Assembly (NCBI GenBank): GCA_963743915.1
Contig: CAVURN010000002.1
Location: forward strand, 160,001 to 224,000
DNA length: 64,000 nt
Direction of reading: 5' to 3'
From: an uncultured Actinomycetota bacterium
GTDB lineage: Bacteria; Actinomycetota; Actinomycetes; JAHEKZ01
Below, in pieces: positions 46,683 through 57,905 of the stretch. Under the pieces are notes generated by a model. That model was not told the origin of the DNA, did not search any database, and saw nothing but the letters and a program-made list of their open reading frames with translations. The translations under genes were made by a program, and so were the position numbers. Within the stretch, counting starts at the first letter, position 1. Every line of letters starts with the position of its first letter.

Positions 46683-47456
46683 ATGGGCGGCCATGAGGCG
46701 GTGGCCGTGACGGCAGTCGAGTGGCTGGCGATCCTGGCCGCGGGGGTCGCTGCGGGTGGCATCAACGCGCTGGTGGGTTCCGGAACGCTGGTGACGTTCT
46801 CGACCCTGGTCACGCTCGGCGTCCCGCCGCTGACGGCGAACGTGTCCAACACCGTGGGGCTCGTGGCGGGATCGGTGGCCGGGAGCCTGGGCTACCGCAG
46901 TGAGCTCGCGCAGCAGCGCGACCGCCTGGTGCGCTACGTGCCGGCCTCACTGGCGGGTGGTCTCGCCGGTGCAGCCCTGCTGCTCGTTCTTCCGTCTTCC
47001 GCCTTCGACGCGGTGGTCCCGGTGCTCGTGGCCCTGGGGGTGCTGCTGGTGGCTCTTCAGCCGTACCTGTCCCGAAGGCTCGCGGTGTCGCACGACGCCC
47101 ACCCGGTGGGCGGTCCGGTGGCGTGGGTCGCAGTGTTCGCGGTGGGCGTCTACGGCGGGTACTTCGGCGCCGCGCAAGGGATCCTGCTCATCGCGGTGCT
47201 CGGCATCTTCGTCGACGCCCATCTGCACCGGATGAATGCCGTGAAGAACGTGCTCGTCGCCCTCGTGAACGGCATCGCCGCCGCGGTGTTCATCGTCCTG
47301 GCGCCGGTCGACTGGGGCATTGCGCTCGTGCTGCTGGTCGGGTCCTCCGTCGGCGGGTACCTCGGAGGTCGCCACGGCCGGAAGGTGTCACCATCGTTGC
47401 TGCGGACGTTCATCATCGTGGTCGGGGTCATCGCCCTCGTGGTGATGCTCACATGA
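46683..47456 (+). CDS. TSUP/TauE sulfite exporter family permease
   Basis: AGGINALVGSG, YGGYFGAAQG, NAVKN; ~8 TM; start may be 46707. Confidence 0.9.
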   Translation: MGGHEAVAVTAVEWLAILAAGVAAGGINALVGSGTLVTFSTLVTLGVPPLTANVSNTVGLVAGSVAGSLGYRSELAQQRDRLVRYVPASLAGGLAGAALLLVLPSSAFDAVVPVLVALGVLLVALQPYLSRRLAVSHDAHPVGGPVAWVAVFAVGVYGGYFGAAQGILLIAVLGIFVDAHLHRMNAVKNVLVALVNGIAAAVFIVLAPVDWGIALVLLVGSSVGGYLGGRHGRKVSPSLLRTFIIVVGVIALVVMLT

Positions 47457-48277
47457 CGGTCATCGACATCGGATCGGCCGATGACGAACGGGTGGACGAC
47501 TACCGAGACCTCACCGACGTCGGGCTGCGCAAGCGGCGCGAGCCCGCGCAAGGGCTGTTCATGGCCGAGAGCCACCCGGTGATCGAACGCGCGATCACGG
47601 CCGGCTATCCGGTCCGGTCCGTGCTGACGACGCCCCGATGGCTCGGCGACGTCGAGATCCTCCTCGCGACGGTCGACGCACGGGACACACCGGTCCTGGT
47701 GGCCGATGACGACGTGGTGCGGGAGATCACCGGGTACCGCGTGCACCGTGGGGCGCTGGCTGCGATGGCGAGGCTGCCCCTGCCTGCTGTGGACGACGTG
47801 GTCGCCGGTGCAGGTCGGGTGCTCGTGCTCGAGGGCATCGTCGACCACACCAACGTGGGCGCCGTCTTCCGGTCCGCCGCCGGACTCGGCTTCGACGCCG
47901 TCCTCATCGACCCGACGTGCGCCGACCCCCTGTACCGGCGGTCGGTGCGGGTGTCCATGGGTGCGGTGTTCTCGATCCCCTGGACACGGTGCGCCCCCTG
48001 GCCGGCCACGCTGACCTCGATGGGTGCCGACGGCTGGCAGGTGCTGGCCCTCACCCCACGACCTGAGGCACAGGAGCTGGGCGAGGCGGCGGCCGCCGCT
48101 CCCGAGCGGATCGCCCTCGTGCTGGGCACCGAGGGGCACGGTCTCACCGACGGTGCCCTCGCCGCGGTCACCGGCCACGTCCGGATCCCGATGGCGACCG
48201 GTGTGGACTCGCTCAACATCGCCGCAGCGGCAGCGGTCGCCTGCTACGCCTTCGGACCGGGAACGGCTCGCGAGTAG
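47453..48277 (+). CDS. TrmH/SpoU family RNA methyltransferase
   Basis: DHTNVGAVFRSAA, DPLYRRSVRVSMG, LGTEGHGL, IPM..GVDSLN. Confidence 0.93.
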   Translation: MTVIDIGSADDERVDDYRDLTDVGLRKRREPAQGLFMAESHPVIERAITAGYPVRSVLTTPRWLGDVEILLATVDARDTPVLVADDDVVREITGYRVHRGALAAMARLPLPAVDDVVAGAGRVLVLEGIVDHTNVGAVFRSAAGLGFDAVLIDPTCADPLYRRSVRVSMGAVFSIPWTRCAPWPATLTSMGADGWQVLALTPRPEAQELGEAAAAAPERIALVLGTEGHGLTDGALAAVTGHVRIPMATGVDSLNIAAAAAVACYAFGPGTARE

Positions 48278-48330
48278 CGCCGCCCGTGCGGCGCGGTGCC
48301 GGCCCGTGCGTGAGGTGACAGGATGACGGC

Positions 48331-48720
48331 ATGAGCGGAGCCCTCGAACGGGACGAGGCGGGCACGCCACGGACCCGGTTGCTGCCCGACCGTCACGGCA
48401 TGGTGGTCCGGCTGCAGGCCGTCTCCGGTGGTCGAGCGGCACTGCTGGACGCGCTCCACCGGTACGTGGACAGCCTGACCGACGAGCCGGCCACCGAGTT
48501 CTTCTGCGTCTCCCTCGACCCCGACGACACCGAGACGGTGTGGCTGCACGAGTGGTTCCACGGCGAGGACGGCATCAACGCGCACCGTGCGGCTCCGGCC
48601 TTCGCCGAGCTCATGGGCGAGCTGGACGGCGTGCTGAGCGCACCTCCGGGCGTGATGCGCTTCGTCCCACTCCGGCTGCACCTGGCCGAGGGCCTCTGGC
48701 AGGACGAACCGCTCGGCTAG
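48331..48720 (+). CDS. Antibiotic biosynthesis monooxygenase (ABM) family protein
   Basis: EPATEFF.V..D..D..TVWLHEWF......AHR..PAF pattern. Confidence 0.78.
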   Translation: MSGALERDEAGTPRTRLLPDRHGMVVRLQAVSGGRAALLDALHRYVDSLTDEPATEFFCVSLDPDDTETVWLHEWFHGEDGINAHRAAPAFAELMGELDGVLSAPPGVMRFVPLRLHLAEGLWQDEPLG

Positions 48721-51289: not shown

Positions 51290-51493
51290 ATGGCAGTAGG
51301 CAGCGTTAAGTGGTTCAACGCTGAAAAGGGTTATGGCTTCATCGAGCAGGATGGCGGCGGCGCTGACGTCTTCGTCCACTTCTCGGCCATCACCATGGAC
51401 GGTTACCGCACCCTCGAAGAGGGCCAGCGAGTGGAGTTCGAGATCACCCAGGGGCCGAAGGGCCCCCAGGCGGAGAACGTCAAGACCGCCTGA
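51290..51493 (+). CDS. cspA: Cold-shock protein
   Basis: [34 protein letters not shown]. Confidence 0.97.
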
Positions 51494-51527: not shown

Positions 51528-51581
51528 GACGAAGGCCCGATGTCGCGCCCCTCACAGGGTGGCGGTGTCGGGCCTTTCGTC
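51528..51581. terminator. Stem-loop, probable bidirectional terminator between convergent cspA and S51-like gene
   Basis: GACGAAGGCCCGA...TCGGGCCTTTCGTC inverted repeat. Confidence 0.7.
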
Positions 51582-52831
51582 GTCCGCCAGGCTCCACCCG
51601 ACGCCGTCCGGCGTGTCGTTGACCGTCACCCCGGCGCCGGTGAGCACGTCGCGCAGCAGGTCGCTGGTCGCGAAGTCACGTTCACGACGGGCCGTGGCGC
51701 GCGCGGACAGGACCGCCTCGACCACCGGCGCCACGATCTGCCGAGGGTCATGGACGCCGGCCAACGCGAGGTCGCCGAGCCGCACCACCATGGCCCGCAG
51801 CTGGCGCCGCGCCTGGTCGAGCGCGTCACTCTGCAAGGTGTCGGAGGACCAGGCGACCATGGCGTCATCCAGCGCCAGGATCGCCGCGACGGCGCCGTCG
51901 ACGTCCTGCTGCTCGACAGCCTCGTCGAAGCGCCGGCGGAGGGCGTCGGTCTCGTCGGCCAGCGACGGCGGTGAGTCTGCGCCGGCCGAAGCCGGGCTCG
52001 CCTGGGTCGCGGTGCCGCGGCTGGGGTCGCCGGCGCGTGGGCGCTGCCTCGCACCATCGCGCGGAGCTCGTCCACCGAGACCGTGCTGCCGGAGGGAATG
52101 ACCTCGTCACCGCCCGGCCGGGCGACCGTGAGCCGCCCCACCCCGCGCACGTCGACCGTGCCGGTGCTGTCGTCGAGGACGACCGCGGTGTGCTCGTCGA
52201 CCCCGAGCACGGCGGCGTCCGGGGGAAGCTCGCGCTGCAGGAGCTCGAGCCGCTCCTGGCCGAGGTAGCAGAAGCGGGTGTCGTAGGTTCCCCCCTCGTT
52301 GTTGTCGAAGTGCGGGACCACGGCGACCGTCACGCCGAAGGCGCGTCCGAGCAGGTCGAGTCCCTCCGCCCAGAACGGGGGAGCGCCGACCTTGTAGATC
52401 TCGTAGACCGGCAGCGCCCAGCGTCCGGCAGTGACGGCCGCGGCGCTGCCGAGAACGACAGTCCCGCCACGCACCAGGACGTCGTCGACAGCGCCGGCCA
52501 CCGGAGTGTCGCGCCACTGGTCGAGCGCGTAGGTGGGGCTGCCCGGGCCCGCGAAGAGCCAGCTCGCGCTGCTGATCAGGGTGAGTGCGCGTTCGGCGTC
52601 ACGCGAAGGCAGATCGCGACGCCGCCACGACGCCGGGACGACCTCACGGCCGACCGAGTCGTCGAAGTAGCGCGTCGTGCGAGCGGTGAGGTCGTCGGCA
52701 TTGACCTGGAACCCGTACGGCGTGTCGAGCATCACGGCCGCACCGGGCGGGCAGGACTCCAGCACTGCACGGTGCGTCTTGACCATGGCGGGCGCGGTCT
52801 CGCCCGATCCCATCAGCACGACGCGGCTCAC
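51552..52831 (-). CDS. Peptidase S51/cyanophycinase-like hydrolase fused to CysRS-like C-terminal domains (frameshift ~52000-52045)
   Basis: LMGSGE, FAGPGSPTYAL, LGSAAA (Ser), VPHFDN (His), GVDEHTA (Glu); after linker RRRFDEAVEQQDVDGAVAAIL and ARRERDFATSDLLRDVLTGAGVTVNDTPDGVGW. Confidence 0.8.
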
Positions 52832-53694
52832 GCGGACGATCCTTCCACCCGGCCGACCATCGCGAGCAGCTGGTCGGACACCACGGTCGGTTGCTGCAGA
52901 TGGAGGTCGTGATGCGCGTCCGGGTGCCAGCTCACGGTGACCCGCGGAAGAGCACGTTGGGCGGCATCGACCTCATCGGACGTCACGGCACCGGCGACCA
53001 TGAGGTGGACGGGGACACTGATCCGTGGGTAGAGGTCGGCTGGGTCGTCCTCCCACATGGATCGCAGGATCTGCCGGTGGTGGTCCCGGGCGAGACGGTT
53101 CCGCACCCGACCGTCCACCACCTCGAGATTGCCCGCGATGGCAGCCATAGCGTCGCCCGGCCAGTCGGCGACCATCGTCCCGATGCGCGCCAGGACGGCC
53201 TCCGGTGAGCCGTCGCCGAAGTCGGGAGGGGCGAGCCGACTCCAGCAGTCGTCGAAGCTCGGGAACCGCGGCCGCAGGTGGATCCAGCCGCCGTCGACCG
53301 CCACGACGCCGCCCCACCGGTCGTCGTCGTGGGCAGCCCGCAGCACCACGTTGCCTCCCCACGACTGGCCCGCGAGGACCGGACGTCGGTCCTGCCAGCC
53401 CAGGGCTGCCTGCACCGTCACGAGGTCGTGAGCGGCCGACGCCGTCGTGTGGCCGTGCGCGGGACGGTCGGAGCGCCCGTGCCCCCGTAGGTCGACGACG
53501 GCGACCGCGTGCCCACGCTCGTGGAGCTCGTGCGCCACGGTGCGCCACAGGAGGGCGTTCGACGCCAGCCCGTGCACCAGCAGGAAGGGGCGCCCAGACG
53601 CAGGGAGCACGCGAACCGCCAGAGCAGTGCCGTCGTCGAGGGTCACCCGGTCCGGTTCGACCCAGGTGTCCGGGGGCCAGCCGCTGACAGTCAT
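52828..53694 (-). CDS. Alpha/beta fold hydrolase
   Basis: LLVHGLASN, VDLRGHGRS, AGQSWGG nucleophile elbow, AHHDLH. Confidence 0.92.
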   Translation of the reverse strand: MTVSGWPPDTWVEPDRVTLDDGTALAVRVLPASGRPFLLVHGLASNALLWRTVAHELHERGHAVAVVDLRGHGRSDRPAHGHTTASAAHDLVTVQAALGWQDRRPVLAGQSWGGNVVLRAAHDDDRWGGVVAVDGGWIHLRPRFPSFDDCWSRLAPPDFGDGSPEAVLARIGTMVADWPGDAMAAIAGNLEVVDGRVRNRLARDHHRQILRSMWEDDPADLYPRISVPVHLMVAGAVTSDEVDAAQRALPRVTVSWHPDAHHDLHLQQPTVVSDQLLAMVGRVEGSSA

Positions 53695-54668
53695 GGTTCG
53701 TCCTTCATCGCTGCGACGGCGTCGAGCAGCTCGGCGCATCGCACGGACTCTGCCTCCTCGACCACGTACGCGTCCACCTCGCCGCGGATCCGTCGGGACA
53801 CCGAGCTCACCATGAGCGCGTAGGCATCGCACGCGGGGAAGGACTCCTGCCAGTGCGTGGCACCGTCGGTCAGGTCGAGCTCGGAAGCCGTACCCCAACT
53901 GGTGAACGCGGGCGACCCCCAGGTGAGGGCGAGCTGGTCGCCGGTCAGGTGAAGAGCCTGGTGCTCAGGCTCGAGGAAGGACATGTGCGCCTGCGCCGAT
54001 GCGCCGTCCGACGTGCAGAGCCGCGCGGCCGTGCTCAGGTCGACCCCGGCCGCCGACCGCTCCCGCACCACGCTCTCGACCCGCCAGTCAGCCGAGATCC
54101 AGGTCGTGGCCGGCCGGAGCACGTAGGGCCCGACGTCCAGCAGGGAGCCGCCACCGCGGGTCGGGTCGAGGCGGTAGTTGTCCTGAGGTACGCCGTCGAA
54201 GGTGAAGGACGCCGCGATCGAGCGCACCCGTCCGACATCTCCCTGCCGCACCATCGCGTCGACGCGTCGGGTGCGGGGATGCCACTGCGTCCATGCGGCC
54301 TCGACGAGCAGGCGGTCCACCCCACGGGCGGTGTCGAACGCCGCGCGAGCCTGGGCAGCGTCGAGCGTGAGGGGCTTCTCGCAGAGCACGTGCTTGCCGG
54401 CCCGCAAGGCCTTGACGATCCAGGGCAGGTGCGCCTCGTTGGTGAGCGAGATGTAGACGGCCTCCACCCGGTCGTCGTCGAGCACGGCGCCGTACTCGTC
54501 GCCGACCGCCCGCGGCTCGAGAGCCTCGGCGCGCCGACGGTCGCGTGCCGCGACCGACTGCAGCGACGCCTCGGGGGTGGCATGGACCGCGGGGGCCATG
54601 GCCCGCGACGCGACGAACCCAGCGCCGAGGAACCCCCACCGGACGGGGTCGGACGCAGCTGCGCTCAC
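53691..54668 (-). CDS. Gfo/Idh/MocA family oxidoreductase
   Basis: WGFLGAGFVA, AGKHVLCEKP, GGGSLLDVGPY. Confidence 0.93.
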   Translation of the reverse strand: MSAAASDPVRWGFLGAGFVASRAMAPAVHATPEASLQSVAARDRRRAEALEPRAVGDEYGAVLDDDRVEAVYISLTNEAHLPWIVKALRAGKHVLCEKPLTLDAAQARAAFDTARGVDRLLVEAAWTQWHPRTRRVDAMVRQGDVGRVRSIAASFTFDGVPQDNYRLDPTRGGGSLLDVGPYVLRPATTWISADWRVESVVRERSAAGVDLSTAARLCTSDGASAQAHMSFLEPEHQALHLTGDQLALTWGSPAFTSWGTASELDLTDGATHWQESFPACDAYALMVSSVSRRIRGEVDAYVVEEAESVRCAELLDAVAAMKDEP

Positions 54669-56329
54669 GACTCGCCGTCGACGCGCACCGGCTGACCCCC
54701 CGCCCTGGCGGATGCGCGGGCGGCCTCCATGACGGCGACCACCCGACGCGACTGCTCCGCGCGGACCTGCATCGGCCAGCCGGTGCAGAGCTCATCGACG
54801 AGCTCTGCGTGGAAGGCATGCGGGGGAGCGGGCATCAACGCGAGGGTCGTCTCCGACCCGTCAGGAGCGAACCGCAGGACCTGGGGTGGCGCGTCGGTGA
54901 CGGCGAGGACGTCCTCGTCCAACGTGCCGATGGCGCTGCGACGGGTGACGGTGGTCCGTCGCCAGGTGCTCGACAGCGCGCCCTCCGTACCCAGGAGGTA
55001 CCAGCGTGGTTTGAGTGCCGCCGCGAGGTCGGAGTGCACGAACGACGCCTCCACCCCGTCGGTGAACCGGAGAGTGAGGCTGGTGTGGTCGGCATTGGTC
55101 ACGTCATGCCACCGGCGCTTGTGCTCGAGGGCCGTCACGTGGTCGATCCGCTGCGGGTGGAGGGCCAGCAGCTGGTCGATGACGTGCGAGCCCCAGTCGT
55201 ACACGGCGCCGCCTGACACCGCCTCGTCGGAGTGCCAGTAGTTGCAGGGATGGCCGTAGCCACCGATGAAGGTCTCGATGTGGAAGACCTCACCGATCGC
55301 CCCGGAGCGGACCACGTCGAGCACGGTGCGGAAGTCGGGGTCGAACCGGCGGTTCTGGTACACGACCGCGGTGCGTCCGGTGCGCCGCGCTGCTTCGAGA
55401 ACCCGGTCCGCCTCTTCACCGGTGAGGGCAAAGGGCTTCTCGACGACGACGTGCTTGCCGGCCTCCAGGCAGCGGACCGCCCAGTCGGCGTGCGTGTCCG
55501 GCGGCGTCGAGACCACCACCACGTCGACCGTGGGATCGTCGAGCAACGCCTGGGCGTCCGTGCTGGTCCGGACCTTCGGAAAGTCCCGGCTCGCGGCGTC
55601 CAGCCGGCTCTCGGCGCGGTCACACACGAGCCGCAGGTCGAGCTGCGGCAGTGCGGCCACGGCACGGGCGTGCTCGGCGCCGATCGCGCCGAAGGCCAGC
55701 AGGCCGACCCCGAAGGGGGTGGTGTGGAGCACGGACGACGAGCCGGTGGCCCGGAGCAGCAGCAGGTGCAGCAGTCGGGCGGCGGTTCGCGCGTCGTCGG
55801 GGGTGCCGGGGATCACGCTGAACGAACCCACCGAGGTCTCGGGGTTCCACGTGGCGACGGGATGGGAGGTGAGACCGATCTGGGCGGTGAGCCACACCTC
55901 GACGACTTCACCGATCTTCTCGGTCGTCAGGATCGGTGTCTCGATCTCCGCAGACGCCCGCAGTGGGTCAACGGCGTCGCACCAGCCCTCAGGGGCGGTG
56001 GGGGAGAGCCGCGAGGGGTGACGTGGAGCCCAGGGACCGGTGACGATGCCGAGGGCGTCGTCGAGGGGCGCGAGCTCGACCCCCGCCGTCGGACCGAGCA
56101 GGAGCAGGGGCTGACCGGTAGCGGCGGCATCTCGGACCGCGCCTTCGGCGAGCGCGGGGAGCGGACCACGGCTCCAGACGAGGACCACGTCAACGGGGGA
56201 CTGGTCCTGCCGCCCCGCCTCCTGCCATCCAGCGGCCCGCAGGGCGTCGCGCCACTGCTCGAGCACCCAACGGTCGTCGGCACCGGCCTCACCGACCACC
56301 CACTGCACGCGTCCTGGCGCGTCCTTCAT
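54665..56329 (-). CDS. Gfo/Idh/MocA oxidoreductase with ~200-aa N-terminal extra domain
   Basis: VGLLAFGAIG, AGKHVVVEKP, YQNRRFDPDF, SGGAVYDWGSH; GGGAGG RBS; alternative start 56341. Confidence 0.88.
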   Translation of the reverse strand: MKDAPGRVQWVVGEAGADDRWVLEQWRDALRAAGWQEAGRQDQSPVDVVLVWSRGPLPALAEGAVRDAAATGQPLLLLGPTAGVELAPLDDALGIVTGPWAPRHPSRLSPTAPEGWCDAVDPLRASAEIETPILTTEKIGEVVEVWLTAQIGLTSHPVATWNPETSVGSFSVIPGTPDDARTAARLLHLLLLRATGSSSVLHTTPFGVGLLAFGAIGAEHARAVAALPQLDLRLVCDRAESRLDAASRDFPKVRTSTDAQALLDDPTVDVVVVSTPPDTHADWAVRCLEAGKHVVVEKPFALTGEEADRVLEAARRTGRTAVVYQNRRFDPDFRTVLDVVRSGAIGEVFHIETFIGGYGHPCNYWHSDEAVSGGAVYDWGSHVIDQLLALHPQRIDHVTALEHKRRWHDVTNADHTSLTLRFTDGVEASFVHSDLAAALKPRWYLLGTEGALSSTWRRTTVTRRSAIGTLDEDVLAVTDAPPQVLRFAPDGSETTLALMPAPPHAFHAELVDELCTGWPMQVRAEQSRRVVAVMEAARASARAGGQPVRVDGES

Positions 56330-56468
56330 CCGACCTCCCATCGACGCAATGACCCTAGGCGACTGGTCGGACAGCGCCAACCGCAAAGGAGATGCCTTCT
56401 TGCCGGCGGGTCTTACGGCCCTGACCTGCGACGACGGCACTGGTTACCGTGAAGTGGGGGTGAGGACA

Positions 56469-57530
56469 ATGCTGACCAAGACACTCACCGCACCACTCGA
56501 CCCGTACCCCGACTCCTTCCCCGAGCCGTTCGAGCGGCTCGTCTCCGAGCACGTGCTCACACCGGAGCAAGCCCGCCTGGTGCTGGACGCGCTGAAGCAG
56601 GAGAGTCCGCCACCGCCTGTACCTGCGCGCACGACACCTGCGCGCACACCGTGGGCAGCCCGGTTCGCTGAGATCGGCGCGTACCTCGGCGCCGCCCTCG
56701 TGGCCGCAGCAGGCGGGGTCGTCGTCGCCCAGCAATGGGGCGACATGACGTACGCCCTGCGCGTGGGCGTCCTCGGCGTCACGACTCTGGTCCTCGTCCT
56801 CGCGGCGATGGGCGTCGTGATGTTCCGTGGCTCTCGGGCGTGGGACGACCTTCCCAACGGCGACACGCTGCGCAGGCTCGCCGGCACCCTCTTCACGCTC
56901 GGTGCAGGGACCGCATTCGGCACCGTGATGGTCGCGATGCTCAGCGAGCAGGAGGCCGTCAGCGAGTTCGAAGCCGGACGCGCCACTCTCATCGCGGCCG
57001 GAACGGCGTTCGCGATCCTGGTCGCCACCCGATTGCTCGCAGTCTCGGCTCTGGCCGAGCTGGCGCTGTTCGGCGCGATGGTGGGCATGGTGGCCGGCGT
57101 TCTCGCCATGACGACGCAGGACGACGAGTACTCCGCATACGCCATGCAGTGGACCCTGCTGGTGACCGGGCTGACCTGGGCTCTGATGGCGACCTACACC
57201 CGGCTGCTGAAGAACCGCACCTTGGGGACGGCGCTCGGTCTGGCTCTGGCGCTGTTCGGGGCCGCATCGATCGCGGACCACCCGTGGTCGCACCGGATCG
57301 CCCTGCTGACGCTCGTGGCCGTCACGCTCGCCGTGTACCTGACCCGCCCCAGCTGGCCCTACATCGCCACAGCCATCGTCGCCGCGGTCATCCTCACCGT
57401 CACTTGGGTGGGAGAGGCCGTCGGTGCGGCGCTCGCCCTCCTGTCGGCAGGCGTAGTGGTGCTGGTCCTCGCAGGTGGGGCGCTCTCCTGCACCTGCACC
57501 GGGGCTCCACGACGAGGTCGGCGCATGTGG
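56469..57530 (+). CDS. DUF2157-like polytopic membrane protein (3' end uncertain, indels ~57485)
   Basis: LVSEHVLTPEQA..., AEIGAYLGAAL, QQWGDM, ~10 TM helices. Confidence 0.72.
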
Positions 57531-57814
57531 ATCCTCTTTGGGCACCTTGTCCGACGCCGACGGGCGAGCGCCCGCGAGCTCTACGAGCGACGGCTCACCT
57601 GGATCACCGACGACATGCGAGCTCGGCCCGCCAGCACGGCTGCCGCTTCCATCGAGCCTGGTACTCCGAGGATGACAACACCTTCTATGCACTGGCGCTC
57701 TGGGACTCGCGCGAAGGTGCACGTGCGTTCTTCGCCGAGTGGCAGATAGCAGATGAGCCCGGTGAGACGGCCATCGAGCTGTTGGGCGATGTGGGTCTGG
57801 TCCCGCTGCCCTGA
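57525..57814 (+). CDS. Small alpha+beta barrel-like hypothetical protein (indels)
   Basis: GAGG RBS, MWILF...ELYERRLTWITDDMR then HGCRFHRAWYSEDDNTFYALALWDSREGARAFFAEW in the adjacent frame. Confidence 0.6.
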
Positions 57815-57905
57815 CGCTCACCATCCGACGTGCGTTGATCCCCACCTGGCGAGTCGGTAGCGTCCGACATGACAAGCGGCTCAGGGGGGCTTTGGGGGCT
57901 CCACC

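Follow-up and report, generated by a model that had tools for sequence, protein, structure and literature searches.

The gene located at positions 51552..52831 on the minus strand of the window (the whole 64,000 bp stretch of DNA analyzed here, from contig CAVURN010000002.1 of an uncultured Actinomycetota bacterium) encodes a protein in which an N-terminal hydrolase domain of the peptidase S51 type is fused, via a flexible linker, to a C-terminal module derived from cysteinyl-tRNA synthetase (CysRS). The gene comprises ~426 codons once a one-base break in its reading frame is allowed for. The fusion is real, and it is the rule in a large, mainly actinobacterial family. Thus, in a survey of 113 related loci (22 from genomes, 11 from a phylum sample and 80 from metagenomes), 104 were found to contain one continuous open reading frame (ORF) over both parts. 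Two other loci are frame-broken, and seven contain one part only, which is explained by a contig end or by a match below the threshold. The alternative considered in the initial annotation of this DNA, namely that homologues would consist of two separate genes, therefore fails.

Architecture and conservation of the fusion protein

Translation of the minus strand from the GTG start codon (52831-52829) gives MSRVVLMGSGETAP..., followed by FAGPGSPTYAL, LGSAAAV, VPHFDNNEGG and GVDEHTA, and continues to an Ala/Pro stretch. From about position 52010 downwards the protein proceeds in a second frame, whose offset corresponds to one base missing or two added. This second frame contains ...ASPASAGADSPPSLADETDALRRRFDEAVEQQDVDGAVAAILAL... 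and ...ASPASAGADSPPSLADETDALRRRFDEAVEQQDVDG..., the latter ahead of ARATARRERDFATSDLLRDVLTGAGVTVNDTPDGVGW, and ends at the TGA stop codon at 51554-51552. The N-terminal motifs, the CysRS-like C-terminal part and the single indel that had been described in the initial annotation were all recovered in this translation. An intact homologue of 426 aa (P0001), which is 97% identical to the product of the window gene, served as reference, and a family profile was built from 63 sequences sharing 33-65% identity with P0001.

The N-domain (residues 1-261, 52049..52831, minus strand) is identified by structural and conservation evidence. The fusion protein was modeled by AlphaFold2 (AF2) with a mean predicted local distance difference test score (pLDDT) of 91.2, and the model of the N-domain displays the S51 fold, with Foldseek E values of 2e-14 to 6e-7 and VIA Z scores of 17-26 against the peptidase of acI-B1 (6NQC), CphB and PepE. 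The highest Z scores were obtained with 6NQC (26.1), pseudo-CphB 7UQV (25.8) and cyanophycinase 3EN0 (24.7), followed by PepE (20-22). In agreement with this, comparison of the 63-sequence profile with solved structures retrieved 6NQC at an E value of 4.4e-12. Invariant in all 63 sequences are G8-S9-G10-E11, G95-P99, S129-A130, P141/Y143/E144/Y146/K147/G149, H174, N177, G180, D184 and T185, and D212-E213-H214-T215 is kept in at least 90% of them. Ser129 (52445-52447), the putative nucleophile, aligned with the Ser of the CSAGA motif in 6NQC, and the GxDE motif of the family aligned with the GIDE motif of cyanophycinase 7UQW, the Glu of which we take to be the catalytic Glu201. Together with His174 (52310-52312) and Glu213 (52193-52195), all three on the minus strand, Ser129 would form the catalytic set of what sequence and model indicate is a competent-looking serine hydrolase. 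The profile, the conservation pattern and the AF2, Foldseek and VIA results all agree on this point with the S51-like hydrolase carrying a Ser-His-Glu set that had been predicted at the outset.

The fusion N-domain thus shares its fold with the S51 family (aspartyl dipeptidase PepE, cyanophycinase CphB, pseudo-CphB and 6NQC), and likewise places its Ser in a G/A-S-A-A-A elbow, its His in P-H-x-D/N and its Glu in G-x-D-E-x-T. It differs from the S51 structures in that sequence identity amounts to only 15-22%, and none of the solved chains among the matches has a C-terminal tRNA-synthetase module. Two invariant insertions, PVYEIYKVG and, after the His, DNAEGGxHDT, are specific to the family and absent from 6NQC. 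The N-terminal part of the window protein has no match in Pfam, including to Peptidase_S51 (PF03575) at E<=1, and 25 of the 63 members match PF03575 at E<=0.01, with a best E value of 2e-7. The cyanophycinase equivalog TIGR02069 gave 12.1 bits (E 0.098), which is far below its cut-off of 126.6.

Residues ~262-290 (51963..52048, minus strand) form a flexible linker rich in Ala, Gly, Pro, Ser and Thr, within which the frame break is located. The pLDDT of this stretch drops to 49-60 in the AF2 model, i.e. it is predicted to be disordered. A linker is present in every one of the 63 members; its length ranges from 18 to 48 aa (median 29), and A, G, P, S and T account for 63% of its residues.

The C-module (residues 291-426, 51555..51962, minus strand) consists of three long helices and an alpha/beta anticodon-binding domain. 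Several lines of evidence relate it to CysRS. The C-terminal part of the window protein matches Pfam CysS_C (PF23493; ~51594-51725, minus strand) at an E value of 1.9e-7 and 31.5 bits, above the gathering cut-off of 23; the score of the window gene was 34.1 bits in the genome search, and 57 of the 63 members have the same match. The 63-sequence profile retrieved CysRS structures 8QHP (6e-14), 3TQO (2e-12) and residues 329-460 of the E. coli enzyme (1LI5/1U0B, 2.9e-12). Residues 292-416 of the AF2 model could be superimposed on residues 332-461 of CysRS in its complex with tRNA-Cys (1U0B_B) with a Z score of 8.0 and 24% identity over 115 residues; the large root-mean-square deviation of this superposition reflects a hinge. 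The last helices and the CysS_C domain are therefore homologous to the C-terminal region of CysRS (E. coli 329-461), as the initial annotation had suggested from the sequence. No match to Pfam DALR_2 was obtained at E<=0.01 with any of the 63 members, even though the helices preceding CysS_C are included when the profile is aligned to CysRS.

The remainder of CysRS is missing. Unlike CysRS, the fusion protein lacks the Rossmann catalytic domain, and neither the HIGH nor the KMSKS motif was found in it, which bears out the earlier statement that it is not a synthetase. The match to the cysS model TIGR00435 is restricted to model positions 342-463 and scored 26.7 bits versus a cut-off of 340. 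As judged from these motifs and from the lack of a full-length TIGR00435 match, the fusion protein is not a synthetase. A further difference is that a separate full-length CysRS is retained in the five carrier genomes tested and in the genome to which the window belongs. We considered that the fusion protein could provide the anticodon domain of a split CysRS in trans. This was ruled out, since the cysS match covers positions 1-465 in 5/5 carriers and the CysRS of the window's own genome has a CysS_C domain of its own.

Re-engineering of E. coli CysRS is reported to have targeted R427, W432, D436 and R439 as anticodon-domain contacts, of which R427 reads G34 (PMC13449415). According to the profile alignment, the equivalent family positions are 382, 387, 391 and 394. 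In the window protein these are R382 (51687-51689), F387 (51672-51674), D391 (51660-51662) and R394 (51651-51653), all on the minus strand. Position 382 is R in 62 of the 63 sequences and K in the other one; position 387 is W, F or Y in 63/63, and D391 and R394 are invariant. Because the equivalents of the CysRS anticodon contacts are kept in 62-63 of the 63 members, docking of the C-module on tRNA-Cys, with its GCA anticodon, is plausible.

Database searches revealed the size of the family. With the N-terminal part as query, 7802 proteins were obtained at E<=0.001 among 8000 scored candidates; among the best 120 of these 7802 matches nearly all were 400-450 aa long and most carried PF23493. 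An exhaustive search of representatives at 50% identity produced 2151 matches at E<=1e-3, 1038 at <=1e-10 and 468 at <=1e-30, and most of the top matches aligned in one stretch, from residue 4 to ~415. Strong matches (E<1e-60) were present in 23 of 300 evenly sampled Actinomycetota genomes and in none of 24 sampled genomes of the window's own class, these 24 belonging to large-genome families with canonical MshC. Atlas clusters of the family are labeled only 'hypothetical' or 'CysRS-like' and belong mostly to Actinomycetota, with one Chloroflexota cluster; the JGI label for family members is 'cyanophycinase-like exopeptidase'. Literature searches, for which subscription-only papers and supplements were outside reach, yielded no published account of the S51-like/CysRS-C architecture. 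In-frame stops that seemed to separate the two parts in six of the surveyed loci were an artefact, the high-scoring segment pair having been extended over a natural stop codon.

The frame break in the linker

In the sequence as given, the two parts of the window gene are in different frames, as would be the case for a true pseudogene of this genome or for a real frameshift that yields two separate products. Two other relatives, the only further out-of-frame ones found, also have the break in the GC-rich linker (L009, 8001-9250, and L018, 8001-9225). Both of these loci come from metagenome-assembled genomes (MAGs) with isolate names that have the prefix 'MFD'. Several observations argue against a biological cause. 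When compared with P0001, the halves of the window gene align over residues 2-277 and 269-424 with 96% and 94% identity, respectively, and have no further defect. The break thus corresponds to residues 269-277 of P0001, and contig comparison together with frame logic place it at 52007..52012 in the window. We compared this region with four Logan contigs (X1-X4) from four public metagenome runs belonging to three studies; these are contigs from near-identical or related strains, not raw reads of the window's own sample. Relative to the window, a single G is inserted at 52007/52008 in X3 and X4, and two bases are absent at 52011 from X1 and X2. X1 and X2 are near-identical to the window, with 5 differences in a 493-base piece. 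A gain of one base or a loss of two at the break shifts the downstream frame such that the halves join in a single frame; hence all four contigs carry frame-restoring indels at the same spot. In addition, each of the 80 metagenome loci examined is either continuous or interrupted by a contig end.

The genome assembly itself, which consists of five contigs, provides another indication. Its mshC gene is spread over two frames and its mshA gene over three. The broken mshC is located at G000:C2:230615-231833, ~6.6 kb past the end of the window, and the broken mshA at G000:C5:567390-568612. The presence of these additional frame breaks in the same assembly points to a systematic indel error, and the pattern of breaks fits such an error in GC-rich runs. 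Taken together, the sequence comparisons make an error of assembly, rather than biology, the probable cause of the frame break; the contig evidence for this is strong, though not final, and we consider it very unlikely that the gene is a pseudogene or is truly split. The assembly appears to carry frequent indel errors, and other 'frameshifted' genes in the window should be read accordingly.

Gene neighborhood and relation to MshC

The gene directly upstream of the fusion gene (52828..53697, minus strand) encodes an alpha/beta hydrolase of 289 aa with GQSWGG as its nucleophile motif and matches to Pfam Abhydrolase_1/6. Its TGA stop codon overlaps the GTG start codon of the fusion gene (GTGA). 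Among the 61 metagenome loci whose upstream flank exceeds 900 bp, 41 likewise have an alpha/beta hydrolase gene directly upstream of the fusion gene and in the same orientation. In most of these the end of the hydrolase gene coincides with the inferred fusion-gene start or lies about ten bases or less from it. The pair is also present in an Acidimicrobiaceae MAG (L018) and in several of the sampled genomes. This arrangement indicates translational coupling between the fusion gene and the conserved alpha/beta hydrolase gene ahead of it. Its motifs mark the partner as catalytically intact: H42-G43, G-Q-S-W-G with S112, and H263-D264 do not vary among 49 sequences. The solved structures related to it are those of generic esterases, haloperoxidases and dehalogenases. 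A predicted complex of the fusion protein with the alpha/beta hydrolase obtained a score of 0.01, a value that has no bearing on whether the two bind. In the 20 metagenome loci that lack the hydrolase partner the neighbors are mixed, and no recurring gene was recognized among them by eye. At one of them (L126:5338-6129) the downstream gene starts like what we take to be the DinB/mycothiol-dependent-enzyme N-terminal family.

Further upstream are two Gfo/Idh/MocA oxidoreductase genes (53691-54668 and 54665-56440, both minus strand), which overlap each other by 4 bases and complete a string of four overlapping genes with the alpha/beta hydrolase and the fusion gene. The string is kept in close relatives (L001-L009, L019 and L022). 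Elsewhere, an adjacent upstream Gfo gene was seen in several sampled genomes and, among the 46 metagenome loci whose flank exceeds 2 kb, in only four; this part of the string is specific to some lineages. The protein encoded by 54665-56440 is 591 aa long; its oxidoreductase domains begin at about residue 245, and the first ~240 residues are without a Pfam match. On the other side, a cold-shock gene (51290-51493, plus strand) is located downstream of the fusion gene and converges on its 3' end; the cold-shock protein is 96% identical in relatives whose fusion protein shares only 62-68% identity. Genes for cell-wall and peptide hydrolases are numerous around the fusion gene in the window, among them those for a beta-lactamase-like protein and NlpC/P60. 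Long ORFs at 47150-48442 (minus strand) and at 56355-57875 (minus strand) / 56349-57749 (plus strand) gave no Pfam match or a weak match to DUF2157 below the gathering score. No tRNA genes were found within the window.

MshC, the CysRS paralog that serves as Cys ligase for mycothiol, resembles the fusion protein in being CysRS-derived, mainly actinobacterial and potentially tied to cysteine handling. The two nevertheless have no domain in common, since MshC retains the catalytic half of CysRS and the fusion family the C-terminal half. We considered the fusion protein as a substitute for MshC. For the genome of the window this was ruled out (the test was limited to this phylum) because MshC and MshA are both present beside the fusion protein: the two pieces of MshC score 309 + 324 = 633 bits (cut-off 485.1), and the pieces of MshA sum to 622 bits, also above the cut-off. 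Linkage of the fusion gene and mshC was likewise ruled out, as the genes are ~18 kb apart in this genome and far apart in G062, G105, G145, G162 and G216; they are thus unlinked in the carriers for which both positions are known.

A short CysRS/MshC-like paralog, encoded by frames of ~380-460 aa without the C-terminal anticodon domain, scored 360-432 bits against the MshC model, for which the cut-off is 485.1. It occurs alongside full-length CysRS in 40 of ~276 sampled genomes outside the window's class (including G062, G105, G162 and G216) and in 15 of the 23 genomes with a strong fusion match, an association that is confounded by phylogeny. In addition, family f15 has the MshC-like gene in 12 of 13 genomes and the fusion gene in none of the 13, and family f16 has the fusion gene in 5 of 14 genomes and the MshC-like gene in none of the 14. 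These two families break the association in both directions. This short paralog could represent a diverged form of MshC or some other Cys ligase.

Proposed function of the fusion protein

Directly supported by the results presented above are the identities of both domains, the conservation of the catalytic and anticodon-contact residues, the conservation of the fusion and the pairing with the alpha/beta hydrolase gene. Our working interpretation, which we put forward tentatively, is that the fusion protein is a hydrolase that docks on tRNA-Cys and acts on an acyl group at the 3' end of this tRNA. The C-module would dock on the GCA anticodon of tRNA-Cys as CysRS does, and the tether would allow the hydrolase domain to reach the acceptor end. 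Ser129 would then attack an aminoacyl or acyl-aminoacyl group on tRNA-Cys at its ester carbonyl, and water would resolve the acyl-enzyme, such that the protein would be a tRNA-Cys-specific deacylase or quality-control enzyme, probably acting jointly with the translationally coupled upstream alpha/beta hydrolase. S51 peptidases cut behind an N-terminal residue whose amine is free. The acyl group attacked there has the geometry of that in an aminoacyl ester, so deacylation would be chemically natural for this fold. The initial annotation had likewise envisaged a hydrolase acting on tRNA-Cys. The S51-like/CysRS-C architecture that it described, which is conserved (104/113 loci), and the non-synthetase nature of the protein have stood up, and the action on tRNA-Cys is carried over here as a proposal. 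New relative to that annotation are the probable assembly origin of the indel, the translational coupling to the alpha/beta hydrolase gene and the large size of the family.

Among known architectures, the closest precedent is that of crenarchaeal ThrRS-ed, which is a free-standing hydrolytic editing domain with an anticodon-binding domain (PMC11295145). If our interpretation is right, the fusion protein would resemble it in joining a hydrolytic domain to an anticodon reader derived from an aminoacyl-tRNA synthetase and in deacylating in trans, and it would share tRNA-directed deacylation with the aminoacyl-tRNA deacylases YbaK, ProXp-ala, AlaX, DTD and CtdA. It differs from the known editing domains in its catalytic fold, which is of the S51 type (class I glutamine-amidotransferase-like) and unrelated to theirs, and from known trans-editing factors in its proposed target, tRNA-Cys. 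We know of no dedicated editing factor for tRNA-Cys, and of no aminoacyl-tRNA-directed enzyme with an S51 peptidase fold. Both the catalytic fold and the target tRNA would then be new among tRNA-targeted hydrolases.

Several considerations weigh against this interpretation. We infer tRNA binding, the substrate and the chemistry, with ester hydrolysis being predicted from the architecture. The flexible tether fixes no geometry. CysRS is very accurate without having an editing domain, and the need for a proofreader of tRNA-Cys is therefore not obvious. The patchy spread of the family (23/300 genomes, and 0/24 in the window's own class) is more in keeping with an accessory role than with core quality control, and the recurrent alpha/beta hydrolase, plus Gfo/Idh/MocA in some lineages, point towards small-molecule metabolism. 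Finally, the nearest solved relatives of the N-domain (6NQC, cyanophycinase and PepE) are peptidases, so that an ordinary peptide substrate is possible.

This last consideration leads to another explanation, according to which the protein is an ordinary S51 peptidase of the Asp-dipeptidase or cyanophycin-fragment type for which tRNA-Cys is not a substrate, and the CysRS-derived tail serves in oligomerization, localization or regulation by uncharged tRNA or another RNA. The closest structures, with Z scores of 20-26, are all peptidases, the JGI label and the Peptidase_S51 match of 25 of the 63 members agree with it, and so do the cell-wall and peptide hydrolases around the gene in the window. 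Such a peptidase would however have to account for a TIGR02069 score that is only 12.1 bits, for invariant insertions that 6NQC does not have and for contact residues that are 98-100% conserved at an overall identity of 33-65%, a pattern difficult to understand unless recognition of a GCA-type RNA is under selection. We regard an ordinary peptidase as rather unlikely. The contact residues, and the domain evidence as a whole, are also compatible with an aminoacyl transferase, which would dock on Cys-tRNA-Cys, take up its Cys on Ser129 as an acyl-enzyme and transfer it to an amine or hydroxyl acceptor, giving rise to a cysteine-containing metabolite. The acceptor could be a sugar, inositol or another small molecule, with the alpha/beta hydrolase and Gfo/Idh/MocA proteins as pathway partners. 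The tight coupling to the alpha/beta hydrolase gene (41/61 loci) would fit such a pathway, as would the two Gfo/Idh/MocA genes of sugar/inositol dehydrogenase type that precede the fusion gene here and in some distant lineages, and the MshC-like paralog in 15 of 23 carriers versus 40 of ~276 genomes of other classes overall, bearing in mind the phylogenetic confounding. On the other hand, the presence of canonical MshC and MshA implies that the fusion protein is not required for mycothiol in this genome, families f15 and f16 separate the fusion from the MshC-like gene, Gfo genes adjoin in only 4/46 metagenome loci, and the operon in the window showed neither an aminotransferase gene nor one that would make an acceptor. 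We also know of no S51 enzyme that acts as a transferase, which counts against this possibility, and we consider it as doubtful as the peptidase.

Returning to the proposed hydrolase of tRNA-Cys, a more specific version of it, which we regard as speculative and quite unlikely, would be that the fusion family constitutes the first tRNA-specific repair or proofreading enzyme on the S51 fold, stripping damaged cysteine from tRNA-Cys before it is incorporated into protein. The damaged residue may be cysteine sulfinate or sulfonate, mimics of the aspartate preferred by S51 enzymes, or S-thiolated or persulfidated Cys, and the coupled alpha/beta hydrolase may handle a second acyl or thioester bond.

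The fusion family adds to the reuse of pieces of aminoacyl-tRNA synthetases as targeting modules: MshC corresponds to the catalytic half of CysRS, and the fusion family to its reader half. Because this large conserved family keeps both the hydrolase site and the anticodon-reading residues of CysRS, it lends itself to direct testing as a candidate for tRNA quality control of a new type, or for cysteine chemistry that depends on tRNA, in Actinomycetota that abound in soil and freshwater.

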